DNA of 34,666 nt from Dehalococcoidia bacterium (lineage in GTDB: Bacteria; Chloroflexota; Dehalococcoidia; SZUA-161), in the NCBI GenBank assembly GCA_035529555.1, contig DATKWL010000116.1, positions 1-34,666 of the forward strand. The letters run 5' to 3'. Below are positions 5,594 through 28,738 of this stretch, piece by piece. Within the stretch, counting starts at the first letter, position 1, and every line of letters begins with the position of its first letter. The position numbers and the translations under genes were made by a program. The notes under the pieces were generated by a model. That model was given only the letters and a program-made list of their open reading frames with translations, did no database searches and was not told the DNA's origin.

Positions 5594-5995
5594 CTAAAAA
5601 AATGGATTCTCAATCTTAAAACGGCGGCTGCAGGCTTGGCAGTAGACAGCGTGGGCATCAGGCTCAGCTGGGGTCTCCGCACCACAGTAGGGGCAGACGG
5701 GATACCACATATCTTCCATGGTAGCCGCCTCAAGGTTTTTCTCAGTCATAGTGACTGTCTCTTCTTCGACCTCTGGCGCCCGTATTTTTTCCGCCTCCCC
5801 CAGCGCCTTGCGGGGTATTAACTTCTGCCCTACTCCTGTGCCCAACCCTATGCCGTGACTAATAAAGTGATCCTTACACATAAATGCCCACGGCCCCATG
5901 CGAGTTTTCCCGTCATAGAGGCCTGGCCAATCACAGAAATCGCACTTTGGTAGTTCCTGCACATATGCTGTGGTGCCGCTTCTTGGATTGCCCAT
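5594..5995 (-). CDS. zinc-ribbon protein (133 aa)
   Basis: Contains CDFC...CKDH near the N-terminus and CPYC...CQAC at the C-terminus. GGAGG lies 9 nt upstream of ATG 5995. Confidence 0.65.
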   Translation of the reverse strand: MGNPRSGTTAYVQELPKCDFCDWPGLYDGKTRMGPWAFMCKDHFISHGIGLGTGVGQKLIPRKALGEAEKIRAPEVEEETVTMTEKNLEAATMEDMWYPVCPYCGAETPAEPDAHAVYCQACSRRFKIENPFF

Positions 5996-6010
5996 CTTCT
6001 ACATCCTCCG

Positions 6011-6061
6011 AAAAAGAAAGGAGCAAGCATTATTTTGCTCGCCCCGTTTTTATCTATTGTA
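6011..6061 (-). promoter_or_regulatory. leader hairpin copy U1 (GGGGCGAGCA/TGCTTGCTCC + U-tract) with upstream TACAAT
   Basis: The minus strand reads TACAAT..AAAAACGGGGCGAGCAAAATAATGCTTGCTCCTTTCTTTTTCGGAGG..ATG(5995). The -35 element is weak. Confidence 0.55.
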
Positions 6062-8862: not shown

Positions 8863-8906
8863 CTCTAATACCTCCATCGCTTTAGCTGGGGGAAGCAACC
8901 CCCGCC

Positions 8907-8954
8907 AAAAAGGAGCGGGTCAAGTTACCTTCTCGGCGAAGGCTGCTTGCCCCG
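8907..8954 (-). terminator. leader hairpin copy U3
   Basis: The minus strand reads AACGGGGCAAGCAGCCTTCGCCGAGAAGGTAACTTGACCCGCTCCTTTTT, between the minus promoter and gene 8611..8862. Confidence 0.55.
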
Positions 8955-8964
8955 TTCTTCTGCC

Positions 8965-8993
8965 TTGACAAGTTGTAAAGTTAGATTTACAAT
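8965..8993 (+). promoter_or_regulatory. sigma70-like promoter TTGACA-17-TACAAT (rightward)
   Basis: -35 at 8965-8970 and -10 at 8988-8993. Confidence 0.6.
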
Positions 8994-9019
8994 ATACCAT
9001 ATGGGACAAAGGCTGTCAA
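8991..9019 (-). promoter_or_regulatory. sigma70-like promoter TTGACA-17-TATATT (leftward)
   Basis: -35 at 9014-9019 and -10 at 8991-8996 (reverse complement). Its -10 overlaps the rightward -10. Confidence 0.6.
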
Positions 9020-9123
9020 GCGTTACTACAGTCAATAGGACAAAGCACTCGTCGGAATTTCGACGGTTGTATGTCCGAAGGGGAGAAAGGGGGGGAATTT
9101 AGCGCTGCATTAAATTAAAAGGT

Positions 9124-9195
9124 AAAAAGGCGGTCAGTTGCTGAAACGAGAGTTTTGGCTGACCGTCTTTTCTCTCTATTCAGTAACTATCCCGC
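9124..9195 (+). repeat. 72-nt leader element copy A (bulged hairpin with GAGA tetraloop + U-tract)
   Basis: 69/72 identical to 20700-20771. Outer stem 9129-37/9159-67, inner stem 9141-47/9152-58, loop GAGA at 9148-51. Confidence 0.8.
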
Positions 9196-9240
9196 ACAAA
9201 AACGGGGCAAGCGAATCAATTGCTTGCCCTTTTCTTTTTT
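9196..9240 (+). terminator. leader hairpin copy (GGGCAAGCGA/TTGCTTGCCC + TTTTCTTTTTT)
   Basis: Stem 9205-14/9220-29, loop ATCAA. One nt different from the hairpin at 16429-16453. Confidence 0.7.
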
Positions 9241-10499: not shown

Positions 10500-10757
10500 A
10501 TGGCTTATGACCCGAATTGCTCGCTTTGCCGGAAAGAGCCGATTAAGGAGCAGCCTTATCATGATGAAATTTGCTGGGTTACATTCTGCCCTCTTCATGG
10601 GAATCCGATGATCGTTCTCAATGAGCATAGGCCGGAACCAACGCCGGAGGAGTGGGAGCACATAAAGGAGGTGAAGAATAAACTGTACCCAAACCTGAAA
10701 TTCAGAGGAGAGGGGATGCACTCTATGCCTCAGCATTTTCATGAACACCTTGTATAG
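10500..10757 (+). CDS. mini HIT-like protein (85 aa)
   Basis: Has an N-terminal CSLC, PMIVLNEHRPE, and a C-terminal HFHEHLV resembling the HxHxHxx histidine triad. The track ORF starts at TTG 10482. Confidence 0.45.
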   Translation: MAYDPNCSLCRKEPIKEQPYHDEICWVTFCPLHGNPMIVLNEHRPEPTPEEWEHIKEVKNKLYPNLKFRGEGMHSMPQHFHEHLV

Positions 10758-10759
10758 AA

Positions 10760-11904: not shown

Positions 11905-11915
11905 AAGGAGAGGCA

Positions 11916-12803: not shown

Positions 12804-12826
12804 ATCCAAAGGTAAAAATAATATCC

Positions 12827-13849: not shown

Positions 13850-13850
13850 A

Positions 13851-14291
13851 GTGAGACTGCGAGATGCCCTGGCCAGCTTGCCTGATATAGACCACGAGAT
13901 TATTGACTGGTTGGCTGAAATAAATAGCTACAAGGGAGTATGCACCCTGAACTCATGTGCCGGACACAATAACCACTACAATCAACCATTTGTGATCCTG
14001 GCATTCTCCAAGGGCAGCCCCTTTCACAAGTTCTGCCACGAGATATCACCGGTGAGGTCTGATGTTAGTCCTGTGCTGACTCTGTTTTCTGACAAAGGCT
14101 GGGTAGCAGTATTTCCTCCAACAAAAGATATTAGTGTTGAACAAGGTAGCGGAGTAACACCAGAACGCTTGCCGACTGTTAGAAGGGACCTGTTTGAACG
14201 TATCATAGCAACACTGGAGAAGGTGATAGAAAGGAAGGCGAGTGTGAAGGAGATCGAGCGAAAAATAAAGGTGCTGGGGAGGGGGCTATAA
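13851..14291 (+). CDS. hypothetical protein (146 aa)
   Basis: GTG start with GGAGG 5 nt upstream. No family recognised. Confidence 0.55.
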   Translation: MRLRDALASLPDIDHEIIDWLAEINSYKGVCTLNSCAGHNNHYNQPFVILAFSKGSPFHKFCHEISPVRSDVSPVLTLFSDKGWVAVFPPTKDISVEQGSGVTPERLPTVRRDLFERIIATLEKVIERKASVKEIERKIKVLGRGL

Positions 14292-15224
14292 ATGGCAGTA
14301 TTGGTAACGGGGGGCACCGGGACGCTTGGTCGGGAGCTGGTTCACAATCTAGTCGCCAGAGGGCAAAAGGTAAGGATTCTGGCCAGAGACACTAAGAAGG
14401 CAGAGGAGCTTTTCAGCGGTTTGGAGATACTAAAGGGCAATGTCACCGAGGACAATCTTGGCCTGGTGGCTAATCCCCATGTTGATGCAGTATACCACCT
14501 GGCCGGTTTTCTTGACCTGAGTGAGAAACATCGAGACGACTTGTGGAACGTCAATGTCGCCGGCACGCAAAATGTCATCAAGCTCATGAAACTTTATGAG
14601 ATCCCCCACCTTTATTATTGTTCAACTGCATATACCCAGGGAAGGAACTGCTATGAGGAGACCAAAGCCACGGCCGAGAATTGGGTCAGGGAATCGGGCG
14701 TCAAGTACTCCATCTTTAAGCCCGGCATCATCGTCCCCAACTCCAGAACCTTCGAGATTGATAAGCCACAGCACCTTTATCTGGCGGCCAGGTTATGGGC
14801 CAGGCTCCACCGCCGGGCAGAGCCAATCAGGAAAAAATTAGAGAATAAACTTAATCTACCACCCAAGCAAATTAGCTGCCGGATAAAGGGTAACCCCAGT
14901 GCCACCTTGAACCTAGTTCAGGTTGACTGGATAGCAGAAAAAATGGCCAGCGTCCAGGACGAAGGCGTCTACATGCTCACCAGCCAAAGGCCGCTAAGGG
15001 TTTCTAAACTGCTGGAGTGGCTTGGTGAGGTCCTGTTTCTAAACCTCAAAGTGGAGCCTGAGTTCAAGCTGAGGCCACACGAGGCTTTATTTGACCGCCT
15101 GGCCAAGCCGTTCTTGGACTACGTACAAGATGATTTTTCCCGCTTTAAGCACTCATTCAATGACTGCCCTGCCATCAGCCGGGAATTTATTCAAAAGACA
15201 GTTATCAATAGTATTTTAAATTGA
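14292..15224 (+). CDS. NAD(P)-dependent extended SDR (epimerase/reductase family, 310 aa)
   Basis: VLVTGGTGTLGRELV Rossmann motif and a YEETK (YxxxK) motif. Confidence 0.8.
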   Translation: MAVLVTGGTGTLGRELVHNLVARGQKVRILARDTKKAEELFSGLEILKGNVTEDNLGLVANPHVDAVYHLAGFLDLSEKHRDDLWNVNVAGTQNVIKLMKLYEIPHLYYCSTAYTQGRNCYEETKATAENWVRESGVKYSIFKPGIIVPNSRTFEIDKPQHLYLAARLWARLHRRAEPIRKKLENKLNLPPKQISCRIKGNPSATLNLVQVDWIAEKMASVQDEGVYMLTSQRPLRVSKLLEWLGEVLFLNLKVEPEFKLRPHEALFDRLAKPFLDYVQDDFSRFKHSFNDCPAISREFIQKTVINSILN

Positions 15225-15249
15225 CTAACCCGCCCTAAGGGTTTAGAAT
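15221..15249 (+). promoter_or_regulatory. sigma70-like promoter TTGACT-17-TAGAAT without a downstream hairpin
   Basis: The -35 element overlaps the TGA stop of the SDR gene. The SD and ATG 15272 follow within about 20 nt. Confidence 0.55.
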
Positions 15250-15271: not shown

Positions 15272-15595
15272 ATGGTTATGGGGCAAGGCAAAGGTCTTCT
15301 GTCAGAGCTTGAAAGGAAATTGGGATTACCGCCGCTTTCCCAGGTCGCCGAAACCTTACAGAAATTTCCCGATATGCCAAGGCTGCGCCTGATCAAAAAC
15401 ATCCTTGAGGCCTGCGAGCGCCTTTCTCGCACCGCGCCCGAGCTGGAAAAGATTGTCACCCTGGTCAACCTGATTGCCGATACCCCTACCGATAGGCTGG
15501 AGAAGCTGGAGAAGATCCTGAAGCAGGCAAACAAGCTGGTGGCACATGCCCCGAATGGGCTGCTTGAGTTTCTGTCCTCTTTGAAGGAGGATTGA
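15272..15595 (+). CDS. hypothetical helical protein (107 aa)
   Basis: AAGGAGGGG SD. First gene after the hairpin-less promoter. Confidence 0.6.
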   Translation: MVMGQGKGLLSELERKLGLPPLSQVAETLQKFPDMPRLRLIKNILEACERLSRTAPELEKIVTLVNLIADTPTDRLEKLEKILKQANKLVAHAPNGLLEFLSSLKED

Positions 15596-15804
15596 TGATA
15601 ATAAGCCCTGTATTTGCTTTGATTGTTGCCGCGGTCGGTGCCGTGGGAGCAGTGGCTGGGGCTTCAGCCCTCGCCGTAGGAAGGAAAATAGGGCCGAACC
15701 TAACGCTGGCAGACATGTTGCCTCTCGCACCCTGGGAAGGTCCGCCCTTACCTAGATTCACCAAGACGAAGCCAGAGCTTCTTGCTGAGTTGAAGACGAG
15801 GTGA
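15595..15804 (+). CDS. small membrane protein with WEGPPLPRF motif (69 aa)
   Basis: N-terminal Gly/Ala-rich TM helix. GAAGGAGG SD. TGATG coupling with the upstream stop. Confidence 0.55.
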   Translation: MIISPVFALIVAAVGAVGAVAGASALAVGRKIGPNLTLADMLPLAPWEGPPLPRFTKTKPELLAELKTR

Positions 15805-15809
15805 AAACA

Positions 15810-16013
15810 ATGGTTATTGAAATCAAAACTACAGTAGCTTGCCCTATCTGTTCTGAGCAAATACCCGGTGTAGTAGATAAAATAACAAGAACTGATGTTT
15901 TGATGGGTCATCTTGTCACAGTACATGGAAGCCAAGCAAGACCAGCCACACCATTGGAGGGACCACCCCTGCCCAGAGCGTTAGGTATTCACTGGCCATG
16001 GAGGAAGCCTTGA
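15810..16013 (+). CDS. small zinc-finger-like protein with C-terminal LEGPPLPRALGIHWPW motif (67 aa)
   Basis: Has CPIC...HLVTVH. GAGGTG lies 6 nt upstream of ATG 15810. The track ORF starts at GTG 15801. Confidence 0.5.
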   Translation: MVIEIKTTVACPICSEQIPGVVDKITRTDVLMGHLVTVHGSQARPATPLEGPPLPRALGIHWPWRKP

Positions 16014-16378
16014 TCCTGCAGTTAGTTGAATCTGACAGACCAAAGACGGTCGGTGAGAAAATCGCCGAGTTTCTGGCTCGGCCTCCCCAGCCTGTGCTCA
16101 AGTTTTACGGCGATTTCAGCACTGAGACAGCCGACGGCAAAAGGCACCTGTTCTTCGCGATAAGAAACGGGCTGCCGCTTCCCCTTTTCTATGGAATATA
16201 TGTCAGATCTAGTTATGACGGATTCATAGACTACATGGAGAAGACAGACCATATCGGCCCCTTCAGCACTGACGACTGGCGTCTGACGCTGGACACCACG
16301 GGGCCGGCTCAGGCAGAAATTCGCTTGGGGCTTCTCCCGTTTGAAATTTTAACCGACAAGTCTCAGGTTGCAGTTTAG
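15998..16378 (+). CDS. hypothetical protein (126 aa)
   Basis: ORF overlaps the upstream gene by 16 nt. No clear SD. Confidence 0.5.
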   Translation: MEEALILQLVESDRPKTVGEKIAEFLARPPQPVLKFYGDFSTETADGKRHLFFAIRNGLPLPLFYGIYVRSSYDGFIDYMEKTDHIGPFSTDDWRLTLDTTGPAQAEIRLGLLPFEILTDKSQVAV

Positions 16379-16407
16379 TTGACCTTCTCAAAATTCTAGT
16401 TTACAAT
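16379..16407 (+). promoter_or_regulatory. sigma70-like promoter TTGACC-17-TACAAT
   Basis: Starts immediately after the TAG stop at 16376-78. Confidence 0.6.
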
Positions 16408-16418
16408 TGGTGAAAAGG

Positions 16419-16464
16419 CAGAAAAATGGGGCAAGCAAATCAATTGCTTGCCCTTTTCTTTTTT
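16419..16464 (+). terminator. intrinsic-terminator-like hairpin between promoter and RBS
   Basis: Stem 16429-38/16444-53 (10 bp), loop ATCAA, then TTTTCTTTTTT at 16454-64. Confidence 0.7.
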
Positions 16465-16477
16465 GGTGAGGTTGTAA

Positions 16478-16807
16478 ATGACAGTTAGCCAAGACTGCCT
16501 AGAGAAAGCCTACCACATTTACGAAGCCCATGAATGTGCCCACGCTGCATCGAGGGAAGCACTAAGCCGGGATAAAAAGTCTGCCGAGATGTATTTGAAC
16601 CTGATAAATCAGCACTTATATGCCGCGGATGCTTCACTTTCACCGGAGACTAAAATGGAATTGAATCGTGATCTGGCAGAAGCAAGAAAGTTGATTTACC
16701 AGGATGATAAAAATGCCGTCTTCTCGCTAGGTCGCTTTCTGGATAAGACGAAGGAATTGATGTTTGAAGTCGCCGTGGCCTGCGAGTGCCGGAAAGGAGG
16801 GCAATGA
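16478..16807 (+). CDS. helical Cys-motif paralog (109 aa, C-terminal ACECR)
   Basis: GGTGAGG lies 6 nt upstream. Same Cys pattern as three minus-strand genes. Confidence 0.6.
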   Translation: MTVSQDCLEKAYHIYEAHECAHAASREALSRDKKSAEMYLNLINQHLYAADASLSPETKMELNRDLAEARKLIYQDDKNAVFSLGRFLDKTKELMFEVAVACECRKGGQ

Positions 16808-17178
16808 TGCTAAGGTTTAAGTTACCGAAACTCCCTGGCCAAAAAGAACCACCGAAGCTATGGCCGCCAACATTACCCTCGACCACCATTCCCACGCCCT
16901 TTGGGAAAGTGTCCCTCCCCGAGCACAAAATAGGGCTGCCTAAAATGCCATCCCTCGACAAGAGAACCGGCAGTGCCATGAAGCACGCCGTCGGCATCGA
17001 CCTGTCAATAATACCAGGCCTTCTTCCTTTCGTGGGGGACGTGGTCGCGGACGTAGTAGAAGACCTCCATGGTGCTGAATTAAGGAAAATACTGACCTCA
17101 AAAGAGTATGATGAGTTTCTAAAACAGGACAAGATAGCCCCGGCTATAATAGCGATGGCGCGGACATTGACGAAATAA
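16804..17178 (+). CDS. hypothetical protein with N-terminal FKLPKLPGQKEPPKLWPP (124 aa)
   Basis: ATGA-type overlap with the upstream stop, and an AAGGAGGG SD. Confidence 0.55.
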   Translation: MMLRFKLPKLPGQKEPPKLWPPTLPSTTIPTPFGKVSLPEHKIGLPKMPSLDKRTGSAMKHAVGIDLSIIPGLLPFVGDVVADVVEDLHGAELRKILTSKEYDEFLKQDKIAPAIIAMARTLTK

Positions 17179-17191
17179 GGGGAGGCGAGAG

Positions 17192-19699
17192 ATGGAACGA
17201 GCTGAACTGGCTGACGCACCAGAAATCGCAACGATAGAAATAACAGAACCTCTTCCTGAGAGCGGGGTCGTTGACAGCACCTACAAGATTAAAGGCTCAG
17301 TCAAAATGTTTGATGCCATAGGCGCCCCACCCTGGGTTTACGCCGAGGTTAGGTTAAAGGAGTGGGACAAGCCGGAGGTTGCTGAGGAGGTCAGTTACGA
17401 GCGCGGCTTTCCCATGCCGATAACCGGTGAATTTACCATTGAGTTCAAGCCGGAGAAAGAGGGAGATTACGAAATTACTGTTCTGGCTACCCCAGCACCT
17501 TTATCCCTACCCGTCATCGGGGTATTCCCGGTCACCGGCAAGAGCGATGTAATGAAGGTTGCCGTTGGCGAAAGGCCGCCAGCGGTGTTCAGATTCTCGG
17601 ACGTAACGATTGACGAGAATGATATAGCGCTTACCGACCACGATGCTGATTCCGGATTGCTGCTGGAGAAAACCACGGCCGATTATCTGGACATAACCCC
17701 GGCCTTTGAGTGGACGGGTCCCAGCAAGAAGGCCACTGTAAGCATAAAGGCCGGATACAGGGATTGGCTCGGTGCTTTTAGCCCCAAGACGGGGGCTTAT
17801 ACGCGCACCATTACGCTGCCTGAATCACCTACTACTCCCTATTCCGGCGAACTTGAAAGCCCGATAAGGATTCCACTTACCGCCTGCAGCGGCATTACCG
17901 ATGGCGCCATAGAGATGGTGCTCAAGATAGCCAGGGAGCCCGACTACATCAGTCGTATCTGGAACGTCTACGCCACCAAAGCTCCGCCTGAAGCGTTAGA
18001 CTTCGATTTAACAAGGCCTAGCGTCTCCCAAACCCCCGTAGACCCGGGAACCATCATAGACATCACTTGCCCCATTACCTCGAGGTGCGAGAAGGCGGTT
18101 GATGCCCGTGCCAAGGTCATTATCTATGAGGGGTCAGCTCTTCCCGGTCATGGTAGTAAGATTAAGCAATACGATAGCGATGTGTTCCATATAGAGCCGA
18201 ACGAGAGCACAAATGTCGTTGTCCACCACACGGCAGTCAAGGGCACCATAGACAGGCGGGATGTGGAGGTGGAGGTATACGTTGACACGCAGCTGGTCAA
18301 GGAGAGCGAGTGGGATGACGTGTTCTACGTCGGTGTACCGCCAGAAGAGGTAATCGACTTTAACCTGACAAGACCCACAGTTACTCCAGCGGAAATCGCT
18401 CCGGGAACACCTATCACGATAACGTGCCCGGTGACCTCGGCCTGCACCAAGGAGCAAACGGCCACCGCTCAGGTTAAGATTTATGAAGGCAGTTTTTATG
18501 CCGGCCACGGGACCCTGATAACCACCAAGAATTCACCAGCCTTCTCCATAGCACCAGGCCAGGCTTATAATGTCATCGTTCAACACACCGCTATAGCCGG
18601 CACAATTGACCGTCGTGATGTTGAGGTTGAGATTTATATCGGTGGCAAGCTGGTCAAGGAGAGCGAGTGGGATGATATTTACTATGTAATTATCCCCCCC
18701 CCACCACCCGTGCCTCCCACATCTGATATTAGGAACTTTGACTTTCAGCCAGTGAAGGGCACTTATGATGTTGGAGACAGAGTATCCTATAGTGCCCCCT
18801 ACGAATACAAGGGCAAGGCTCAAGGCGGCTGGCTGACAATCTACCTCGGCACAGGAGTGTATCCCTATTTCTCTATCAAGCATACCTACCCCAGGACTGC
18901 GGTAAGTTTTGGTGAGGCGATGGACTGGACATTGGGCCAATTGTCAGGAAACTTCCTCCTGCCAAGCACACTGGTGCCCGGCCAGACATACAATGTCAGG
19001 GCTAAATTAGAGACTGCTGATGGCAAGCAGATAATTGACACCGACTGGGGAGTGATTACCATCCCCGAGATAACACCGCCTCCACCGCCTGTGCCACCCG
19101 CGGCGGACATCAGGAATCTCGACCTTGTGGCCACCAAGGGCACCTATGACATTGGCGACAGAGTGCCATTCACTTGCAATTATGAATACAAGGGAAAGGC
19201 GCAAGGCGGCCATCTTGTCCTTTCACTGGGCACCGGCGTATATCCAACCTTCAGCACGGTGGTAAACTACTACCCGATGCCAGTCAGCTTCGACGAGGCG
19301 ATGGACTGGACCCGGCGCAGTTTTACGGGAACTTTCCTTTTGACTGAAGCCCTTAATCCCGGGCGGACCTATAACACCAGAGCCAAGCTGGAAACTCTAG
19401 ATGACCGCACGAAGGAAACCGACACCGACTGGGAGGTGGTGAGAATACAGGAAGCGGCACCTCCCGGAGAATATACCGTTTTTGTCCTAGCGCTGCCCCT
19501 TGCTGCCGGATGGGTCACCAAGGAGCCGGATAAGGACTCATACGCTTATGGCGAAACGGTGAAGCTGACCGCCATGAGCGCCCCCGGCTACAAGTTTTCT
19601 TACTGGCAAGTTGACGGCGAGTGGGCGGGCTATAGCAGCACCCTGACCCTCATGGTAACCACGGATCTCGAAGTGAGAGCGTATTATACAAAGGTGTAG
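17192..19699 (+). CDS. large multi-domain repeat protein, candidate virion or surface protein (835 aa)
   Basis: GGGGAGG SD. Has an internal 118-aa repeat x2 (aa 265-501) and a 127-aa repeat x2 (aa 502-755), each B copy preceded by PPPPPVPP. The C-terminal approx 80 aa fit the InlB B-repeat-like pattern (YGETVKLTAMSAPGYKFSYW). No signal peptide. Confidence 0.8.
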   Translation: MERAELADAPEIATIEITEPLPESGVVDSTYKIKGSVKMFDAIGAPPWVYAEVRLKEWDKPEVAEEVSYERGFPMPITGEFTIEFKPEKEGDYEITVLATPAPLSLPVIGVFPVTGKSDVMKVAVGERPPAVFRFSDVTIDENDIALTDHDADSGLLLEKTTADYLDITPAFEWTGPSKKATVSIKAGYRDWLGAFSPKTGAYTRTITLPESPTTPYSGELESPIRIPLTACSGITDGAIEMVLKIAREPDYISRIWNVYATKAPPEALDFDLTRPSVSQTPVDPGTIIDITCPITSRCEKAVDARAKVIIYEGSALPGHGSKIKQYDSDVFHIEPNESTNVVVHHTAVKGTIDRRDVEVEVYVDTQLVKESEWDDVFYVGVPPEEVIDFNLTRPTVTPAEIAPGTPITITCPVTSACTKEQTATAQVKIYEGSFYAGHGTLITTKNSPAFSIAPGQAYNVIVQHTAIAGTIDRRDVEVEIYIGGKLVKESEWDDIYYVIIPPPPPVPPTSDIRNFDFQPVKGTYDVGDRVSYSAPYEYKGKAQGGWLTIYLGTGVYPYFSIKHTYPRTAVSFGEAMDWTLGQLSGNFLLPSTLVPGQTYNVRAKLETADGKQIIDTDWGVITIPEITPPPPPVPPAADIRNLDLVATKGTYDIGDRVPFTCNYEYKGKAQGGHLVLSLGTGVYPTFSTVVNYYPMPVSFDEAMDWTRRSFTGTFLLTEALNPGRTYNTRAKLETLDDRTKETDTDWEVVRIQEAAPPGEYTVFVLALPLAAGWVTKEPDKDSYAYGETVKLTAMSAPGYKFSYWQVDGEWAGYSSTLTLMVTTDLEVRAYYTKV

Positions 19700-19700
19700 A

Positions 19701-19955
19701 ATGCCGAACGAAGAATGGGAAAAAGTAAAGCAAGCTTTGAAAAAGCCGGCAACGCCGGAGGCGATGAAAGAAGCCGCCCAAGCCTTTGAGCGATACCAGG
19801 TGGTGAAGTTGGCCAAAGGCAAGGGCTCCAAGCCGACGCTGGTTACCCTGGGCCGGGGGAGAGGGTACCCCAACGCTGTTCCAGTGAACAAAATCCCTGA
19901 GGAGCTGGCCAAGAACCCCAATTTCTTCAACCTCATGCAGAGGGTGGTGAAGTAA
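19701..19955 (+). CDS. hypothetical basic protein (84 aa)
   Basis: Starts 2 nt after the upstream stop. Confidence 0.55.
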   Translation: MPNEEWEKVKQALKKPATPEAMKEAAQAFERYQVVKLAKGKGSKPTLVTLGRGRGYPNAVPVNKIPEELAKNPNFFNLMQRVVK

Positions 19956-20633
19956 ATGCCTGTCGCAGTGCTGATGTCTGACTATGACCTTCCCACTCGC
20001 TCCGCCTCTGGGTTTGTGCTCAGATATATAGCGCCTAGGTTGGAGCCTGTGCACCTTTACGCCATCATGGCGAGGAGAGTGCCCTTTGAGCTTTCCGCGC
20101 CACAATCCGACTTAATCATCGGAGTCGGCCATGGAGATGAAGTCGGCTTCAGCGGGCAGAACGAGGCAGTGATTCTCGAGGTTGGCAAATATAACCCCGT
20201 GGAAGTTAGAGGCAAGGTGATAAAGCTCTTGTCCTGCCAGACCGGCATAGCACTCGGCCCCGATCTGGTAAAAAATGGTGCAGCGGCTTTCCTTGGCTAT
20301 GTGGACGATTATGTGTGGCTTTGCGATGCTGATCTTGCTTCAACGCCCTGGTCTGATAAGATGGCCACCGCCTGTCTCATGCCGGTGGTAGATTCGCTGA
20401 ACGCACTGCTTGATGGCAAAACATGCCGCGAAGCTTTCCAGATAGAGCTGGACGGCTACTCGAGGAATGCCGAGGTTGAAGAGGACGAACTGGCAAAAAG
20501 CTGTTTAGAGTTCAACCGAGAAAATGCCGTCCTGCTTGGGGATCCAGCGGGGCGGGTAAGAAAACGACCCAAACTCCCTTTGCCATTTCGGTTGGTGCCA
20601 CCGCCTCCGCTTTTAGTGCCTTTAAGGAGGTGA
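19956..20633 (+). CDS. candidate clan-CD-like cysteine peptidase with proline-rich tail (225 aa)
   Basis: IIGVGHGDE (His59) and KLLSCQTG (Cys94), 35 residues apart, resemble the gingipain/caspase His-Gly ... Cys dyad. Tail is KRPKLPLPFRLVPPPPLLVPLRR. Pattern-level evidence only. Confidence 0.45.
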   Translation: MPVAVLMSDYDLPTRSASGFVLRYIAPRLEPVHLYAIMARRVPFELSAPQSDLIIGVGHGDEVGFSGQNEAVILEVGKYNPVEVRGKVIKLLSCQTGIALGPDLVKNGAAAFLGYVDDYVWLCDADLASTPWSDKMATACLMPVVDSLNALLDGKTCREAFQIELDGYSRNAEVEEDELAKSCLEFNRENAVLLGDPAGRVRKRPKLPLPFRLVPPPPLLVPLRR

Positions 20634-20658
20634 TACCAAAAATAAACTAAATAAAAAC

Positions 20659-20688
20659 TTGACAAATTTCTGTCCCTGTGTTTAGAAT
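20659..20688 (+). promoter_or_regulatory. sigma70-like promoter TTGACA-18-TAGAAT with an AT-rich upstream tract
   Basis: -35 at 20659-64 and -10 at 20683-88. The sequence AAAAATAAACTAAATAAAAAC lies upstream. Confidence 0.6.
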
Positions 20689-20699
20689 TGTAGCGGGAT

Positions 20700-20771
20700 A
20701 AAAAGGCGGTCAGTTGCTGAGACGAGAGTTTTGGCTGACCGCCTTTTCTCTTTATTCAGTAACTATCCCGC
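20700..20771 (+). repeat. 72-nt leader element copy B
   Basis: Outer stem 20705-13/20735-43, inner stem 20717-23/20728-34, loop GAGA at 20724-27, followed by TTTTCTCTTT. Confidence 0.8.
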
Positions 20772-20777
20772 CCGCTC

Positions 20778-20835
20778 AAAAACGGGGCAAGCAACCTTCC
20801 CCGGAAGGTTTGAACGGCTTGCCCCGTTCCTTTTT
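20778..20835 (+). terminator. leader hairpin copy (CGGGGCAAGC ... GCTTGCCCCG with inner ACCTTC/GAAGGT stem + U-tract)
   Basis: Outer stem 20783-92/20817-26, followed by TTCCTTTTT. Confidence 0.65.
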
Positions 20836-20872
20836 GGTGAGGGTTGCTTCCCCAGAGTAAAAGGAGGGTGAC

Positions 20873-21187
20873 ATGCCTAATAAGCTTCCGGAGCCAACAA
20901 CTATTATTAGTGCCTTAGGAGGCGGAGCTATTGATCTGGCCGAGGGGCCGGTAATAGCTGCCATCAACACCGCCGGAGTCGCCCAGGAATTTGCCAATAA
21001 TGTCAAAGGTAACCTTGACAACCTCAAGAAGGGGATACCCCAAGACCCGTCAGCTATACCTGATTTTGCGGTGAGGGCAGTCACGCACACGATTTCTGAC
21101 GGCTTGGGTTTCTTCGAGGGCCTCGGCAAAGCGGCAACGCAAACTTTTGAAAGTGTCCGCGGTGAGCTCAGGAGAATCACAGGTTAA
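20873..21187 (+). CDS. hypothetical protein, N-terminal MPNKLPEP (104 aa)
   Basis: AAAAGGAGGG SD. First gene after the double-hairpin leader. Confidence 0.6.
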   Translation: MPNKLPEPTTIISALGGGAIDLAEGPVIAAINTAGVAQEFANNVKGNLDNLKKGIPQDPSAIPDFAVRAVTHTISDGLGFFEGLGKAATQTFESVRGELRRITG

Positions 21188-21197
21188 GGAGAGGAAT

Positions 21198-21527
21198 ATG
21201 CCGTACAAGAATCCAACAGAATTATTGGTTGACGCAACCAAGTTGCCAGCGGCGATAGAGGCGAAGCTGCCCGCGGGCGCGCCCAAACTTTCGACAACGT
21301 TGGTGAACATAGCCACCAAGCTTCCCAAGGTTCCCGATTTCCCGATGGAGCTTCCCGACCTGCCGGCGCCGCCAGAGCTGCCCGAACTGCCGGCACCCCC
21401 TGGAGCTGAGCTGCGGCGCTATGTCACCGGTGTCGAGGTGGCGCCAGTGGTGGGTGCGGCTGTGGTTGCGCCAACGCCAGCGCCAGTACCCGCCAGACGG
21501 GGATTGGTTCCCTTTGTCTATGAATAA
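21198..21527 (+). CDS. proline-rich KLP/ELP-repeat protein (109 aa)
   Basis: AAGGAGAGG SD upstream of ATG 21198. The track ORF 21147 extension overlaps the previous gene. Confidence 0.55.
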   Translation: MPYKNPTELLVDATKLPAAIEAKLPAGAPKLSTTLVNIATKLPKVPDFPMELPDLPAPPELPELPAPPGAELRRYVTGVEVAPVVGAAVVAPTPAPVPARRGLVPFVYE

Positions 21528-21550
21528 ATTTAGGAGGAGGACATAGGAAA

Positions 21551-22309
21551 ATGGCTGAAATTGTTGGGCCAGCATTTGCAAAACTAAATCTGATGGCAGG
21601 CACCGCCAGACTTCTGGAGCAAGTAGACCTAAAGCCAGACGACTTAATGGTCTTCAATAGAGACTTCGACCTGCTTGTGAAGGAGCTGTCAAAGGTTGAC
21701 CCTGAGTTGGGGCACAATCTGGCTGCCGAAAAAGAGTTTTACCTCGGTGTCAACCAGATAGCCAAAGGCTACTTCAACATGAAGCCCTTTGGCGGATTAA
21801 AGTCTTCAACCGGGCAATATGGTATGAACATCATTTCGCCCCAGAATCTGAAGACTGATGCAGCCGGCGCAACCCGCCGATATTTGAGCTGGGCGCAGAC
21901 GCTTAGCGTCACCATTAGCGGCACCCATCAGTTTATACTTGGGACTTCTGCTACTGCAGAGTGCTATGCCTCTGCTGAAAGTGAGAAGAAGGAAGTTATT
22001 GGCTTTCACGCCTTCCTCAGCTATAAGCCGGACCCGAAGCTCGTTCTGCTCCACTTGGAAATCAATGATTACCCCTATCCTACCTGGAATGTGGAGCCAT
22101 ATGCCAAGATTACCAAGGCCGATAAGCTATTCAAGATTCTGCCTATTCCCGGTCGAGTAATCCTGCATCCGGGTGGCAAGTTCGCCCTTCAGGGTTTCTT
22201 CGACATCGGCAGCAGCATGGCCGCCGCGGTTTCTGTTGACGTTGAGATATGTCCATTTGGCCTTTGCTTTGCCGAATACGACCAGTTTGAATCCAGCAAC
22301 ATACACTAA
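21551..22309 (+). CDS. hypothetical protein, candidate major structural subunit (252 aa)
   Basis: AGGAGGAGG SD. Largest ORF of the module. No family recognisable by eye. Confidence 0.6.
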   Translation: MAEIVGPAFAKLNLMAGTARLLEQVDLKPDDLMVFNRDFDLLVKELSKVDPELGHNLAAEKEFYLGVNQIAKGYFNMKPFGGLKSSTGQYGMNIISPQNLKTDAAGATRRYLSWAQTLSVTISGTHQFILGTSATAECYASAESEKKEVIGFHAFLSYKPDPKLVLLHLEINDYPYPTWNVEPYAKITKADKLFKILPIPGRVILHPGGKFALQGFFDIGSSMAAAVSVDVEICPFGLCFAEYDQFESSNIH

Positions 22310-22323
22310 AAGGAGGTGACTAA

Positions 22324-22740
22324 ATGACGACAAGTATTTATAAGTTCGAGCAGGGTCGCCTCCTGGTCCACGAAGAGAGAACGTTAGAGACGGGCTATCC
22401 AGCCGTACAAAGTGGCGTCCCGGTCAGGATCGGCCATGTCAGGGCAATAGACCAAGTTCTTTCTATTGATACCAACTATAGTAGGTACGGCCTTATCACT
22501 CAACTCGACGAGGTGAGAATCAGCGGCAACGAGATTTTCGTGGTGATGCGGCGGGGTGACATGGGTACTGTAGTTACCAGTGGCCTCTTTAGTGGTATTT
22601 CACCTGCGGGTCTCAGCGGAATGGCTGCCCTCGGACTCATGAGCGGTATCACCAGCGGGCTTGACTGGCGCGCAGAGCTGCTCAGTGGAGTAGGAATTAG
22701 CGGCGTGGTCAAGGTAACCGCTAACGTCATTGGCTACTAA
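22324..22740 (+). CDS. hypothetical protein with Gly/Ser-rich C-terminal half (138 aa)
   Basis: AAAGGAGGTG SD. Repeated (L/I)SG motifs. Confidence 0.6.
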   Translation: MTTSIYKFEQGRLLVHEERTLETGYPAVQSGVPVRIGHVRAIDQVLSIDTNYSRYGLITQLDEVRISGNEIFVVMRRGDMGTVVTSGLFSGISPAGLSGMAALGLMSGITSGLDWRAELLSGVGISGVVKVTANVIGY

Positions 22741-22786
22741 GGTCGGCTTTGCCCCCTGAAAAGAGAAAAGAGATGGAGGTGGCCCG

Positions 22787-23401
22787 ATGTTAGAACTGCG
22801 GCCGATTGAGGTCTTTGAGCAGGTATGGCCCAGACCGAAGGTCTTGCTACCGGGGCACAATGTCCAGTTCAGCGACAAGTTCCCCGACGGGCTGGACTTC
22901 GTCAAGGGCAAGACTTTCCGGATTACCAAGACGGCCCAGGTAAGATATGAGCTGTCCTGGATTCTGCCCGCCATCAACTACAAGGATATAAACCTGTCGA
23001 ATGAGAACGCCGGGGAGAAGCTCTATCCCGAGGCTAAGGATGAAGTCTACGAGACCCTTATCGGCTTCAAGCCCGGAAACTACTTTACCCTTATCTACTT
23101 CCCCGCCGAGCAGCCCATCTACCGGCTTGGCTACTACACGATGACGCCGCTTATCAGCAGCGCCTCCCTGAAATACCTTGGCGCCATCAAGCCGGAAGAT
23201 AGCCCGGTAAATAACCCCACCCTCAAGATATACACGTTCTTTAAGCTTAACCCGTTCATCTTCAGGATCGCCGTTGACAACGGCGTGGATTACGAAAAGA
23301 TGACCTGGGAAATCTGCGTCAACAAGTGCAAGCTGGAAACGATTGCGGCCCCGGCGGAGCCGGTTAAATACATACCCTATATTGACGAGCTGAAATGGTA
23401 G
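22787..23401 (+). CDS. hypothetical protein, candidate structural subunit (204 aa)
   Basis: GGAGGTGG SD. Confidence 0.6.
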   Translation: MLELRPIEVFEQVWPRPKVLLPGHNVQFSDKFPDGLDFVKGKTFRITKTAQVRYELSWILPAINYKDINLSNENAGEKLYPEAKDEVYETLIGFKPGNYFTLIYFPAEQPIYRLGYYTMTPLISSASLKYLGAIKPEDSPVNNPTLKIYTFFKLNPFIFRIAVDNGVDYEKMTWEICVNKCKLETIAAPAEPVKYIPYIDELKW

Positions 23402-23411
23402 GAGGTGAGCC

Positions 23412-23774
23412 GTGGCAACTAAGATAGTCAACGCCATAACGACCGGCATGGACCTGTGGGCGGAGCACGAGCACAAGAAGGGGCACCTGCTCGGGCTCAA
23501 AGTTGATAACAAGCACTCAGCGCCCGAGACCATCAGACTCATGGACAACTTCACCACCGATGCCGGCTACACCTCCGGCGGCTCGGCCTACAGCGCCGAG
23601 AGCCTCATCAGCGGCTCCGCCATACAGAAGTTCCAGGTAACGGTCCCGGCGGGGGACTCGATTTCCCTTGGGGAGGAAGACTGCAAGGGTCTTGAGTTTC
23701 TGGGAAGAGCTGCAGCCCTTGGTTCAGCAACAGCATCCGGTTGCATAATCACCGCCCAGTACAAGCTCACCTAA
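23412..23774 (+). CDS. hypothetical protein (120 aa)
   Basis: GTG start with AGGAGGTG 4 nt upstream. Confidence 0.55.
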   Translation: MATKIVNAITTGMDLWAEHEHKKGHLLGLKVDNKHSAPETIRLMDNFTTDAGYTSGGSAYSAESLISGSAIQKFQVTVPAGDSISLGEEDCKGLEFLGRAAALGSATASGCIITAQYKLT

Positions 23775-23783
23775 GGAGACAAT

Positions 23784-24194
23784 ATGCCAATAACGGTAAT
23801 AAAAGGGCCTGAGGGCGTCCGGACAGTATTTAGTGCTGTTGAAACTATCACGCAGCTTAGAACTGTGCAGATTGCCTCCGGCTTTACCAGATCCATAATG
23901 GAGGCTGTTTCAGGTTACCCGGAACTGGGCTTGGGAGTGGCCGCTGAGAGCGTTGCATCAGGGGACTTGGCGAGGATAATAACCGGGGGCTATGTTAGCG
24001 GTGTGATATGCGCCTCTGGTGTTAGCTTTGGCGATATTCTCCAGGCCTTCGCGGCATCGGGACTGGGGTCTGGCACAGGGCATGTGGCGCCACAGCTTTC
24101 CGGTCAGATGATGATTGGTAAGGCAGCGATGTCAGGTGGAAGGGGTAGCGGAATAGGTATGATAGTTGATTTCGGTCCAAAAGCAGTACCGTAA
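23784..24194 (+). CDS. hypothetical Gly-rich protein, faintly DUF2190 / capsid-decoration-like (136 aa)
   Basis: TAAGGAG SD. The Gly-rich pattern (SGDLARIITGGYVSG ... IGKAAMSGGRGSGIGMIV) is only a loose resemblance, recalled from memory. Confidence 0.55.
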   Translation: MPITVIKGPEGVRTVFSAVETITQLRTVQIASGFTRSIMEAVSGYPELGLGVAAESVASGDLARIITGGYVSGVICASGVSFGDILQAFAASGLGSGTGHVAPQLSGQMMIGKAAMSGGRGSGIGMIVDFGPKAVP

Positions 24195-24197: not shown

Positions 24198-24251
24198 AGC
24201 CTTGGCGGCGGAATACCGCTCTTTGTTTGGGCCGTTTGCCAAGGCTTTTTT
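24198..24251 (+). terminator. rho-independent terminator closing the 20873-24194 operon
   Basis: Stem AGCCTTGGC (24198-206) / GCCAAGGCT (24238-46), with an internal GCGG..CCGC mini-stem, then TTTTTT. Confidence 0.6.
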
Positions 24252-24284
24252 GGGGGCAATGTCTGAAGGAATTTTACTATAACT

Positions 24285-24466: not shown

Positions 24467-25132
24467 ATGGGTTCCTGGGAACGGCAGAAAGTAAAGGAAA
24501 ACAGAGTACTCTTATCTACTATCTCTCCCCCTGATGGAAAGGTTTCATATCAATGGGCAAGAAGCTGGAGGGAGCTCCAATTACCCCAAGAGTCGGATAA
24601 CTTGATTGTGCAGGGCCTGCCTTACGGCGTTGCTAGGAATTACGCGGTGAAACAGTTACTGGAACAGGGGTTCAGCTGGCTCTTCTTCCTCGACAGTGAC
24701 ATCACTCTGCCACCCAACGCAGTGATGCGACTGCTGGAAACCAAACTGCCCCTGATAGGCTGTTATTATACCCACCGTTTCCCCCCTTACGAGCCTTGTT
24801 TCTACGGAGCTAAGCAGGATGAGCAAGGGAAAATCCAAAAGGTTGCCCTTACCGGGTGGAATTTCGGGGATATTGTGCCGTCTGTATTTTTGCCGGGTGG
24901 TGCTTGCCTGATTCATCGTTGTGTGTTTGAAAGGATGTCGGCGGCAGGGATTAGGAAGTGGTATGAATGGACGCTCGATGTAGATGAACCAATAGGGATT
25001 TCAGAGGATTACTCGTTCTCGTTAAAAGCTTATTCATTGGGGATTACCCCCATGGCGCATACAGGAATCCAAGCTCGCCATGAATGCCTCGCTACCTGCG
25101 GGGTGAGAGGAATAGAGGCAGTAACGCAATGA
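24467..25132 (+). CDS. GT-A fold glycosyltransferase-like protein (221 aa)
   Basis: FFLDSDITLPPNAV (DxD) and SEDYSF. AAGGAG SD. Confidence 0.7.
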   Translation: MGSWERQKVKENRVLLSTISPPDGKVSYQWARSWRELQLPQESDNLIVQGLPYGVARNYAVKQLLEQGFSWLFFLDSDITLPPNAVMRLLETKLPLIGCYYTHRFPPYEPCFYGAKQDEQGKIQKVALTGWNFGDIVPSVFLPGGACLIHRCVFERMSAAGIRKWYEWTLDVDEPIGISEDYSFSLKAYSLGITPMAHTGIQARHECLATCGVRGIEAVTQ

Positions 25133-26673
25133 AAGCAGAAGATTGCCCCAAGGTTAAAATGGACGGCAAATTAAAAAGCTTGGAAGAACTCACTGAAATA
25201 GTTCAAGCATTGAAGGAACAAGACAAGAAAATCGTCCATTGCCACGGGGTCTTTGACCTCCTCCATCCAGGCCATATCCGCCATTTGAAAGCGGCTAGTC
25301 GTGAGGGGGATGTGCTTATAGTAACCGTGACCCTGGACAGATTTGTCAATAAAGGATCCGGCCGCCCCGTTTTTAATGAGGAACTCCGTGCCGAATCTAT
25401 CGCTGCCCTACACTGTGTGGACTTTGTGGCCATTAATGAGTGGCCAACAGCCGTTGAGACAATAAAGAAATTGAAACCTGATGTCTATGTTAAGGGGAGC
25501 GATTACATTCACCGTGAAAATGACCCAACCGGGGGGATATATGAAGAGGAGGAAGCCATTTGGTCCATTGGCGGGCGAATTCACTTTACTAATGAACTCT
25601 CCTTCAGCTCAACCGAGTTACTGAACGGTAACTTTAGCATCCCCAAACAGGCACAGAAATTCCTTGAGCAGTTCCGTTCCATATACTCGGCAGATGATGT
25701 TATACAACGACTAAGAGAGCTGGCAAAAACGAAGGTGCTCGTCATCGGCGATGCGATTATCGATGAGTACCACTACTGCGAACCTATGGGAAAGTCCCCC
25801 AAGGAGAGCATCATGACGACAAGATATCTGCGCGAGGAGGCGTTCGCCGGGGGTGCCCTGGCAGCTGCCAACCACGCTGCTGGATTCTGTGAATGCGTTC
25901 ACTTGATTACCTGTTTGGGGGCAGAGAGCAGCCAAGAGGGATTCATTAGGAGTCACCTCAGGTCAAACGTGAAGGCAAAGTTCTTTTACCGTGAAGATGC
26001 CCCCACACCAACCAAGCGCCGCTATATTGACCCTTTTCTAGCCAAGATATTCGCTGTCTATTACTTGAATAATAGCGATTTGCCTCTGGCTATCGAGAAT
26101 GAAGTTTGCCAGTATATAGAGGCAAACGTTGGGGAATACGACTTAGTCGTCGTAACCGATTTCGGGCACGGATTTATTGGCTCCCGAATCATAGACTTGG
26201 TATGCAACAAAGCCCGGTTTCTGGCTGTCACCGCCCAGACTAATAGTGCCAATATTGGCTTCAATCAGATAACGAAATACCCCAGAGCTGATTATATCTG
26301 TCTTGATGGGTTAGAACTTCGACTCGCCTGTCATGACAAATGTGGTGAGTTTGAAAAACTAGTGCCTAGAATAGGGCAACTGCTTGAATGCAACAACATT
26401 GCCGTTACCCGCGGCAATGACGGTTCACTGACTTACCTGGGCCAAGGTGGCTTCTTTGAAGTCCCTGCCCTAACTGACAAGGTGGTGGATAGACTCGGCG
26501 CCGGTGATGCTTATCTCGCCATTACCGCACCCTGCGCCGCCAAGGGTTACCCTATGGACATGGTAGGTTTTATCGGGAATGCGGTAGGTGCTCTCCAAGT
26601 TCAAGGCATTGGTAACAAAGAGCCGGTGGCGGCACCTGCTTTGTTTAAATTCATTAAGGCGTTGCTTAAATAA
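25129..26673 (+). CDS. bifunctional nucleotidyltransferase (N-terminal) / PfkB sugar kinase (C-terminal), 514 aa
   Basis: HCHGVFDLLHPGHIRHL (HxGH cytidylyltransferase-like) at the N-terminus. LGAGDAYLA (PfkB GAGD) near the C-terminus. ATGA overlap with the upstream stop. Confidence 0.85.
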   Translation: MKAEDCPKVKMDGKLKSLEELTEIVQALKEQDKKIVHCHGVFDLLHPGHIRHLKAASREGDVLIVTVTLDRFVNKGSGRPVFNEELRAESIAALHCVDFVAINEWPTAVETIKKLKPDVYVKGSDYIHRENDPTGGIYEEEEAIWSIGGRIHFTNELSFSSTELLNGNFSIPKQAQKFLEQFRSIYSADDVIQRLRELAKTKVLVIGDAIIDEYHYCEPMGKSPKESIMTTRYLREEAFAGGALAAANHAAGFCECVHLITCLGAESSQEGFIRSHLRSNVKAKFFYREDAPTPTKRRYIDPFLAKIFAVYYLNNSDLPLAIENEVCQYIEANVGEYDLVVVTDFGHGFIGSRIIDLVCNKARFLAVTAQTNSANIGFNQITKYPRADYICLDGLELRLACHDKCGEFEKLVPRIGQLLECNNIAVTRGNDGSLTYLGQGGFFEVPALTDKVVDRLGAGDAYLAITAPCAAKGYPMDMVGFIGNAVGALQVQGIGNKEPVAAPALFKFIKALLK

Positions 26674-28725: not shown

Positions 28726-28738
28726 AGAAGGTGGGGCC

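Follow-up and report, generated by a model that had tools for sequence, protein, structure and literature searches.

In the late control region of phage lambda (PR'-qut-tR', with its protein Q and short 6S transcript), one or more intrinsic terminators lie within 50-200 nt of a strong, constitutive promoter and ahead of a long operon, expression of which requires read-through. A similar arrangement is found in the DNA considered here, namely, 34,666 nucleotides assigned to a Dehalococcoidia bacterium (assembly GCA_035529555.1, contig DATKWL010000116.1; this entire stretch is referred to as the window), where a promoter and two terminator-like hairpins precede the first gene of a module (20873-24194) of a presumably virus-like element. 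The hairpins belong to a family of repeated RNA units that we read, at a probability of roughly 0.5, as promoter-proximal attenuators and insulators, the read-through transcripts of which refold to yield a fully paired leader. Lambda late control differs in that no Q-like protein was found here and in that units stand at many operons rather than at one late operon. Moreover, tR' has no refolding partner, whereas the units carry a conserved one past the T-tract, the sequence encoding the U-rich tract of the terminator.

As in classical attenuators and riboswitch platforms, two mutually exclusive conserved leader folds are predicted for the units, one being an intrinsic terminator. In classical attenuators and in pLS20, the competing strand is made before or together with the 3' arm of the terminator and can prevent termination, whereas here it is made after the U-tract and is present only in read-through transcripts; the logic of the 'zipper-type' attenuator of pLS20 thus differs from that of the unit (PMC13401043). 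The units also resemble HK022 put and lambda N/nut in being structured RNAs repeated just past several promoters of one mobile genome. Still, put and nut are not themselves terminators, and the loops vary among units, no boxB-like loop being conserved. The RNase III hairpins of T7, T3 and SP82 and the ermC and aprE stabilizers are likewise long irregular hairpins found between genes or at mRNA 5' ends, beside ribosome-binding sites, yet have neither a U-tract nor an alternative terminator fold. Finally, in hok mRNA, an early 5' hairpin is thermodynamically replaced after a downstream complementary segment has been made. That switch acts in a toxin mRNA, where it governs both antisense binding and translation; the units, in contrast, are multi-copy operon leaders with a terminator as their first fold. 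When the whole window was searched against Rfam 15 at gathering thresholds, no match was obtained, the best permissive match scoring 22 bits against a threshold of 45, and no tRNA or tmRNA was detected in the window. The IME1 Dehalococcoides virus is a different element (10.64898/2026.09.15.751708).

A promoter and two hairpins precede the module

Re-reading of the sequence placed an AT-rich tract, a promoter, two hairpins, a Shine-Dalgarno sequence and an ATG precisely where the original prediction had located them. These features are as follows:

20636-20658, + strand: AT-rich, UP-element-like tract 5' of the -35 box, read from the sequence
20659-20664 (-35) and 20683-20688 (-10), + strand: sigma-70-type promoter TTGACA-18-TAGAAT, 11/12 consensus match
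20705-20743, + strand: hairpin 1, in which GGCGGTCAG (20705-13) pairs with CTGACCGCC (20735-43) to form a 9-bp GC-rich stem, followed by TTTTCTCTTT (20744-53)
20783-20826, + strand: 10-bp outer stem of hairpin 2, in which CGGGGCAAGC (20783-92) pairs with GCTTGCCCCG (20817-26), followed by TTCCTTTTT (20827-35)
20793-99 with 20804-10, + strand: 7-bp inner stem of hairpin 2, AACCTTC with GAAGGTT
20860-69, + strand: Shine-Dalgarno sequence AAAAGGAGGG
20873-21187, + strand: g104, the first module gene, with its ATG at 20873

The promoter is the top match within 15-26 kb and would initiate transcription at about 20695. Examination of the whole window revealed four promoter matches of at least 11/12, as compared to 0.23 expected, with four being reached in 1/200 Markov simulations. 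In both hairpins, a GC-rich stem-loop lies directly 5' of a U-rich tract, this being the form of an intrinsic terminator, and the d'Aubenton-Carafa score of hairpin 1 is d = +14.3, where d > 0 denotes a terminator. The minimum free energy (MFE) of the 181-nt leader is -82.2 kcal/mol, as compared to -56.8 +/- 4.4 kcal/mol for shuffled sequences (z = -5.74; 0/200). The stretch from the stop codon at 20633 to the promoter contains no further terminator and so the hairpins would, as previously proposed, also stop transcripts arriving from 16478-20633.

The hairpins are subtypes of one modular unit

Hairpins 1 and 2 represent two subtypes of one modular unit of 75-85 nt, arranged here in tandem. 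Each unit presents, in order, an A-tract, a 5' half (segments a and b), a loop, a 3' half (b' and a') and a T-tract. Long units further carry, 3' of the T-tract, a fused repeat of the hairpin's 3' half, termed a'' and complementary to the 5' half, which begins 2-6 nt past that tract in every case. The two units upstream of g104 are both long:

20700..20773, + strand: unit B1 (hairpin-1 type), with A-tract 20700-04, terminator hairpin 20705-20743, T-tract 20744-53 and a'' TTCAGTAACTATCCCGCC at ~20755-20773
20778..20853, + strand: unit B2 (hairpin-2 type), with A-tract 20778-82, T-tract 20827-35 and a'' GGGTTGCTTCCCC at 20841-53

Units were located using two covariance models, namely R1, derived from hairpin-2-type sequences, and R2, describing the hairpin-1 type. 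B1 corresponds to an R2 match at 20698-20775 (97.2 bits) and B2 to an R1 match at 20774-20857 on the + strand (93.2 bits, E = 4e-21, with the E-values of both models being rough). The models cross-match weakly, and in one relative, a hybrid unit (L030:5074) combines the outer stem of hairpin 1 with the inner part of hairpin 2. On these two grounds, the subtypes are treated as a single architecture.

The A- and T-tracts are almost invariant among hairpin-2-type units and are longest in short units; in the short units of the window (A2, C, E and F, described below), no partner for the alternative fold was found. Loops vary (GAGA, AUAA, CUGAGA and AUUGG). The tail of hairpin 1 contains CTCTTTA, and this tail (CTCTTTA/TTCTTTG) bears a possible resemblance to the boxA core.

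The 5' half takes part in two exclusive folds

In long units, the 5' half is common to two predicted folds. The first, T, is the terminator hairpin, while in the second, R, the 5' half pairs with a'' and the inner purine run pairs with the U-tract, leaving a small apical hairpin. R comprises 28 pairs in three stacked helices, as compared to the irregular duplex of at least ~20 bp that defines the size of an RNase III site.

Across 22 units, T was 95.1% paired in an alignment (A6) fitted to that structure, as opposed to at most 58% when slid, with changes on both sides being seen at 11 of 19 pairs; the observed values were reached by 0/500 shuffles. On an independent MAFFT alignment, T was 89.7% paired, with 10 compensatory pairs, while the T form of hairpin 1 was 96.6% paired, with 4 compensatory pairs. 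For R, considered on an alignment not fitted to it, pairing reached 86.6%, as opposed to at most 63% when slid, with 12 compensatory pairs, and none of five measures was reached in shuffles (0/500). The R helix of B1-type units was similarly 87% paired, as opposed to at most 63% when slid.

The strength of the R duplex was also considered. Values of -21.6 kcal/mol for B1 (shuffles, -9.3; 0/300) and -25.9 kcal/mol for B2 (shuffles, -9.4) were obtained, and in individual units, duplexes between the 5' half and a'' ranged from -17 to -31 kcal/mol, as compared to -7 to -14 kcal/mol for shuffled sequences, with no more than 2/300 shuffles being as good. Pairing was specific to the unit, given how the 5' half gave -24.3 with its own a'' and -16.6 with those of other units (permutation, 0/5000). 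Clear examples of R are provided by the relatives L034, where GGGGCAGTCT pairs with AGACTGCCCC, L033, where GAACAGCCTC pairs with GAGGCTGTTC, and L037, with 16 contiguous pairs.

Before a'' is transcribed, T is the only strong predicted fold. Once a'' is present, R becomes the MFE structure of 27 out of 29 long units, lying 5-37 kcal/mol lower, with crude placement of the T-tract inflating a few of the largest differences; for full-length B2, R lies 13 kcal/mol below T. G-U pairs account for 43 of 515 pairs, and in 22 of 29 units, the sense strand gives a more stable fold than does the antisense strand (p = 6e-4). Together, these two observations point to structure at the RNA level, on the coding strand.

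Units precede most gene strings in the window

Eight units were identified in the window, six by R1 and two by R2. All eight are co-directional with the genes downstream and lie just 5' of a start codon, with seven being downstream of a promoter-like match. Five units begin no more than 30 nt from their promoter, while the others are separated from it by an upstream unit or by a leader of 130 nt. Units are found downstream of each of the four 11/12 promoter matches (20659+, 8965+, 9019- and 6871-). The first unit mostly starts 7-12 nt past the -10 box, where the 5' end of the transcript is predicted to lie, and a Shine-Dalgarno sequence is found within ~15 nt past the last unit. Apart from B1 and B2, the units and their promoters are as follows:

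8965..9019, both strands: divergent overlapping promoters, + strand TTGACA-17-TACAAT (8965-8993) and - strand TTGACA-17-TATATT (9019-8991), each 11/12, with adjacent -10 boxes
9122-9199 (R2 match), + strand: unit A1 (hairpin-1 type, 96% identical to B1); R2 96.9 bits; d = +2.3
9194-9264 (R1 match), + strand: unit A2 (short type), GGGGCAAGC..GCTTGCCC plus TTTTCTTTTTT; R1 22.5 bits; d = +25.4
8885..8963, - strand: unit D (long type); R1 66.5 bits, E = 2e-14; R duplex -25.4; MFE structure R by 21.8 kcal/mol
6871-6843, - strand: promoter TTGACA-17-AATAAT, 11/12, overlapping the upstream stop codon
6824-6772 (R1 match 6751-6824), - strand: unit E, ahead of the gene at 6076-6753; R1 35 bits, E = 2e-6; d = +7.3
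5995..6060 (R1 match 5995-6055), - strand: unit F (short), CGGGGCGAGCA..TGCTTGCTCC plus TTTCTTTTT; R1 18.3 bits, a weak match; d = +13.2
16379-16407, + strand: promoter TTGACC-17-TACAAT, ahead of unit C
16421-16465 (R1 match 16418-16485), + strand: unit C (short), adjoining a Shine-Dalgarno sequence and the ATG at 16478; R1 30 bits, E = 4e-5; d = +25.6

A repeat search likewise returned a copy of hairpin 1 at 9123-9195, as a 73-nt direct repeat of 96% identity, and copies of the hairpin-2 core at 9194-9240 and 16418-16464. The d score exceeded 0 in six of the eight window hairpins (B1, A1, A2, C, E and F), with the value for unit D being unreliable in that the hairpin bounds used took in its T-tract. 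Short units A2, C and F are canonical terminators that adjoin a Shine-Dalgarno sequence (d = 13-26).

Members of the family precede most gene strings in the window, with at least six such strings being headed in addition to the 20873 module. These include an operon encoding a ParA/Mrp-like protein together with metabolic-type genes, a divergent operon containing a helix-turn-helix (HTH) gene, and strings of small orphan genes. Units A1 and A2 (9122..9240) lie 5' of the ParA/Mrp-like gene (ATG ~9258), while unit D heads the divergent operon (8611-8874, the HTH gene 8252-8503, and 6868-8292). Since these units flank a divergent promoter region and no same-strand gene is found upstream of D, neither D nor A serves as the terminator of an upstream operon. 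Unit F adjoins the Shine-Dalgarno sequence and ATG of the gene at 5594-5995 and was also listed by a terminator scan; as a promoter, only a TACAAT box and a 9/12 match are found ahead of it. Only one gene string, the 15272-16378 operon, has a promoter (15221-15249) without a unit.

The divergent promoters at 8965-9019 overlap on opposite strands, such that only one could be occupied at a time. Their outputs are a small protein and an HTH_Crp_2 protein (8252-8503, - strand) on one side and the ParA/Mrp-like operon on the other. This region looks like a genetic switch. The same overlapping divergent layout is present in the IMG/VR relative L072, at 12871-12926.

The arrangement is conserved among relatives

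More than 120 unnamed homologs of g252 (21551-22309), the largest of the module proteins, are found in metagenomes from sediment, subsurface, groundwater and soil, and 56 related loci were retrieved for comparison. Gene order is conserved (g835, g84, g225, gap, g104, g109, g252, g138, g204, g120 and g136). In the gap between g225 and g104, most relatives with enough upstream sequence present TTGACA-17/18-TAnAAT, one or two units and a Shine-Dalgarno sequence. In this manner, the predicted order of a strong sigma-70-type promoter, intrinsic-terminator-like hairpins and a ribosome-binding site and ATG was recovered at the same junction in many diverged relatives (L011/12, L016-18, L028-30, L034, L035, L037-39, L041, L044, L050, L065 and L073), in which g252 is 46-78% identical. 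In the junctions of L030, L034 and L039, a consensus promoter was not found.

The number and type of units differ among these junctions. One hairpin-1-type and one hairpin-2-type unit are seen in L011, L018, L028, L039 and L073, two hairpin-2-type units in L041, L044 and L030, and a single unit in L016, L017, L034, L035 and L037, while L036 and L050 carry the subtypes in the opposite order. The T part is the best-conserved DNA of the region, with 83-98% identity, as compared to 58-81% for the flanking genes. This is most simply explained by the two or three pairings that constrain every base of the 5' half, with no need to invoke a protein ligand.

In IMG/VR, neither the exact hairpin-1 pattern nor the g252 profile gave a match. 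The hairpin-2 core pattern returned one 44.9-kb viral contig, the only relative there, with three long units. One of these lies directly 5' of the g204 homolog, with no promoter ahead of it; such an intercistronic unit is seen in L074. A distant relative, L070 (a 97.6-kb contig), contains the same gene module with neither consensus promoters nor units, such that the leader system is specific to a subclade. When the g252 profile was compared to 185,579 species genomes, a single match was obtained, on a 3.8-kb contig of a Dehalococcoidales metagenome-assembled genome, arguing that the element is no normal chromosomal feature. Bin labels, from which alone the host is assigned, are mostly Dehalococcoidales/Chloroflexota, with one Patescibacteria, for contigs of up to 104 kb. 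The metagenome contigs L001, L007, L036 and L039 start or end within a unit, as would fit a dispersed repeat that breaks assembly, and such breaks may be a cause of the mostly fragmentary recovery of the lineage.

Proposed action of the unit

The reading of the unit as an attenuator and insulator that refolds builds on the features observed, their repetition, orientation and conservation, the covariation of both T and R, and the predicted shift in stability from T to R. From these, we infer promoter activity, termination and its efficiency, a role for the R form and any control of read-through by a factor. During synthesis, only T would fold, with the GC-rich hairpin and U-tract acting as an intrinsic terminator that would halt a fraction of the polymerases arriving from the upstream operon and from the unit's own promoter. 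Polymerases proceeding past the U-tract would transcribe a'', whereupon the RNA would refold into the more stable R, a rod of ~28 bp that would bury the U-tract and end a few nucleotides 5' of the Shine-Dalgarno sequence. In productive transcripts, the unit would thus erase its own terminator hairpin, and the resulting 5' leader, compact and paired throughout, would plausibly shield the mRNA or serve as a processing site of the RNase III type. Because it is made after the release site, a'' is not a classical antiterminator.

Several points weigh against this reading. The d score of hairpin 2 is borderline (-7.1), since its T-tract is interrupted by CC, and the outer stem of unit D contains two mismatches, as judged by eye, giving a weak-looking terminator next to a strong R form. 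Lying downstream of the release site, a'' can have no effect on termination of the same transcript, and the roles in stability or processing assigned to it are guesses. In L072, the hairpin-1 equivalent found 5' of a ParA-like gene (12747-12790, - strand reading) keeps the upper stem (GCUGAAAC...GUUUCGGC), with a T-tract being present only on the antisense strand and not on the sense strand; for this reason, a function other than termination may underlie the retention of at least the hairpin-1 subtype. To place a strong terminator right after a strong promoter would, moreover, be wasteful without regulated read-through, and such a layout would fit factor-dependent antitermination at least as well as it would a fixed partial attenuator. 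In terms of the statistics, the fitting of alignment A6 to T has to be taken into account, and the relatives are phylogenetically linked, such that the shuffles overstate independence. Promoter activity, start sites, termination and refolding are, in addition, predictions.

The original prediction called for classic late-gene control, in which efficient terminators keep the structural module off until an antiterminator encoded by the element (Q-, N- or LoaP-like) is made. It is indeed the case that expression of 20873-24194 has to involve transcripts passing both T-tracts, and the near-consensus promoter directly 5' of terminator-like hairpins, the high conservation of stem sequences and the predicted jelly-roll folds of downstream proteins, consistent with virion proteins, are as such control would have them. 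So, too, are the short units, canonical strong terminators placed between promoter and Shine-Dalgarno sequence (d ~25), which are hard to justify without regulated read-through. The late or structural logic is nonetheless not borne out by the distribution of the units, which also head the ParA/Mrp-like, HTH-containing and small-orphan strings. Nor are two terminators needed, with relatives carrying one or two units, in reversed order in L036 and L050, and with the intercistronic unit of L074 having no promoter at all, and the missing sense T-tract in the hairpin-1 equivalent of L072 also speaks against such logic. An antiterminator was likewise not encountered, since searches of Pfam and PHROGs found no Q, N, NusG/KOW (NusG-paralog or LoaP-like) or sigma family member among the ~50 proteins of the window, beyond which the element continues, and revealed no regulator other than the HTH_Crp_2 protein and the ParA/Mrp-like ATPase. 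As the loops are variable, unlike boxB, and as the double pairing constraint accounts for the conservation without a protein, late-gene control is considered unlikely, although factor-dependent antitermination acting across the whole genome is possible.

A mainly post-transcriptional role, in which the unit is a 5' stabilizer hairpin and/or an RNase III site of the T7 intercistronic or ermC/aprE/SP82 kind and termination is incidental or minor, would account for the position of first units at the predicted 5' end of transcripts, 7-12 nt past the -10 box and ending beside the Shine-Dalgarno sequence, for the 28-bp irregular rod typical of RNase III substrates, for the maintenance of a strong R in unit D despite its mismatched T outer stem, for the missing sense T-tract in L072 and for the intercistronic copy in L074. 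A stabilizer, however, needs neither the A-tract nor the T-tract that are almost invariant in hairpin-2-type units, and it is precisely in the short units, devoid of any R form with which to pair, that these tracts are longest, rendering such a role rather improbable. There is, next, a slim chance that R acts in cis on its own polymerase in the manner of HK022 put or EAR, rendering it terminator-resistant over long operons. Structured RNAs do lie just past promoters at several sites of one genome with no partner protein having been found, R would form only once the first terminator has been passed, and primary sequence is strongly conserved across elements with diverged proteins. Yet the units resemble no Rfam family, put and EAR contain no terminator, short units lacking R hold the same position, and a simpler explanation of the conservation exists. 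Least credible is that the units are DNA-level repeats, be they HTH operator sites, recombination linkers at module boundaries or mobile repeats resembling miniature inverted-repeat transposable elements (MITEs). While the many intergenic copies with inverted-repeat character, their presence at module boundaries and the four contigs that break inside units would suit such repeats, it is complementarity and not sequence that is kept, with quite different stems in L017, L034 and L041, G-U pairs occur often and in a strand-specific manner, the eight window units all follow the direction of their genes, and their position is syntenic over diverged relatives rather than scattered. The conserved complementarity and strand-specific G-U pairs led to rejection of the operator version. 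A MITE- or Correia-like mobile repeat, which would be dispersed regardless of orientation and bear terminal inverted repeats and target duplications, does not fit the co-directional, syntenic units, with no flanking duplications being seen.

Other candidate explanations were also discarded. By-eye checks showed that neither a small ORF running across hairpin 2 nor pairing of a'' or the U-tract with the Shine-Dalgarno sequence is conserved in relatives. Hairpin 1 showed no convincing resemblance to a CRISPR repeat (i.e., as an RNA anti-CRISPR), as judged without comparison to a repeat database.

Significance of the two-state leader

Leader terminators and attenuators are textbook elements, whereas a conserved two-state leader with its pairing partner 3' of the terminator is not. 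This layout implies selection on the fate of transcripts after read-through and possibly reflects a general, overlooked reuse of a terminator as a 5' mRNA structure. It is also conceivable, although we consider it doubtful, that the unit represents a new regulatory RNA class, the self-erasing terminator, in which a transient checkpoint hairpin is replaced through a'' by an active rod in every read-through transcript, lineage-wide and without a protein antiterminator. The active rod could then bind polymerase for processivity, as does put, or license processing or translation, and a whole lineage of uncultivated, jelly-roll-encoding virus-like elements would run its transcription via one RNA module.

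Being short (~80 nt), modular and abundant, and with natural variants with and without the refolding arm being available, the unit offers a convenient system for the study of co-transcriptional folding in vitro, and possibly a part for synthetic biology, namely, an insulator that also stabilizes the downstream mRNA. The unit furthermore marks an environmental virus-like lineage (mostly Dehalococcoidia and other Chloroflexota bins) largely missed by standard viral pipelines.

Other genes of the element

When module proteins were compared to Pfam and PHROGs, they proved to be orphans, the sole match being a weak one of g136 to a scaffold family. AlphaFold models of g252 (pLDDT 87.6) and g204 (pLDDT 77.8) are jelly-roll beta-sandwiches. 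Most top PDB matches of g204 are viral single-jelly-roll capsid proteins. For g252, the SPV1 capsid protein and birnavirus VP2 lead a list that also contains other beta-sandwiches. Over both proteins, TM-scores are only 0.27-0.36. On the basis of these models, the earlier description of the module as particle-like is plausible, the jelly-rolls and capsid matches speaking for it and the low TM-scores tempering it. The module g104-g109-g252-g138-g204-g120-g136 may be the virion module of an undescribed lineage of non-tailed viruses. The module ends in a terminator of its own, outside the unit family:

24200..24252, + strand: operon-end terminator of module 20873-24194, AGCCTTGGC...GCCAAGGCT plus TTTTTT, with neither an R1 nor an R2 match

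Although present in single copy in the window, g138 is found in two or three tandem copies in L029, L043, L044, L054, L056, L059 and L064.

Downstream of units A1 and A2, 9258-15224 encodes a ParA/Mrp-like ATPase, an SCP2-like protein, a membrane protein, a peptide deformylase, a UbiA prenyltransferase, a type III polyketide synthase and an NAD-epimerase. This gene set is also found beside a structural-looking module in distant relatives (L070, 1-4167; L072, 6894-12728). It is an unusual cargo for a virus-like element and hints at the synthesis of a lipid or phenolic lipid. At 24467-33800, a sugar-modification cluster encodes a glycosyltransferase-like protein, a cytidylyltransferase-PfkB fusion, a radical SAM/SPASM enzyme, an epimerase, a TPP enzyme, an SDR protein, two methyltransferases and an alcohol-dehydrogenase-like protein. 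The products of this cluster may glycosylate module proteins.

Two of the larger proteins contain internal repeats. The 474-aa protein encoded by 6868-8292 (- strand) includes tandem 138-nt (46-aa) repeats at 7257-7582 that are 95% identical, LDKLNQLGMLKKTG...GALLAQLDQLGLLRKTGEEGR. The 835-aa protein encoded by 17192-19699 presents internal repeats of ~380 nt, proline-rich linkers (PPPPVPP) and a C-terminal divergent InlB B-repeat domain, and looks like a surface, fibre or adhesin-type protein, with the number of domains differing among relatives. Finally, three small proteins encoded by 15592-15804, 15801-16013 and 654-1085 (- strand) share an (E)GPPLPR motif and, in tblastn searches, cross-match to one region of L072. 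Two of these are encoded in the 15272-16378 operon, and the three are, as judged by sequence, a small paralogous family.

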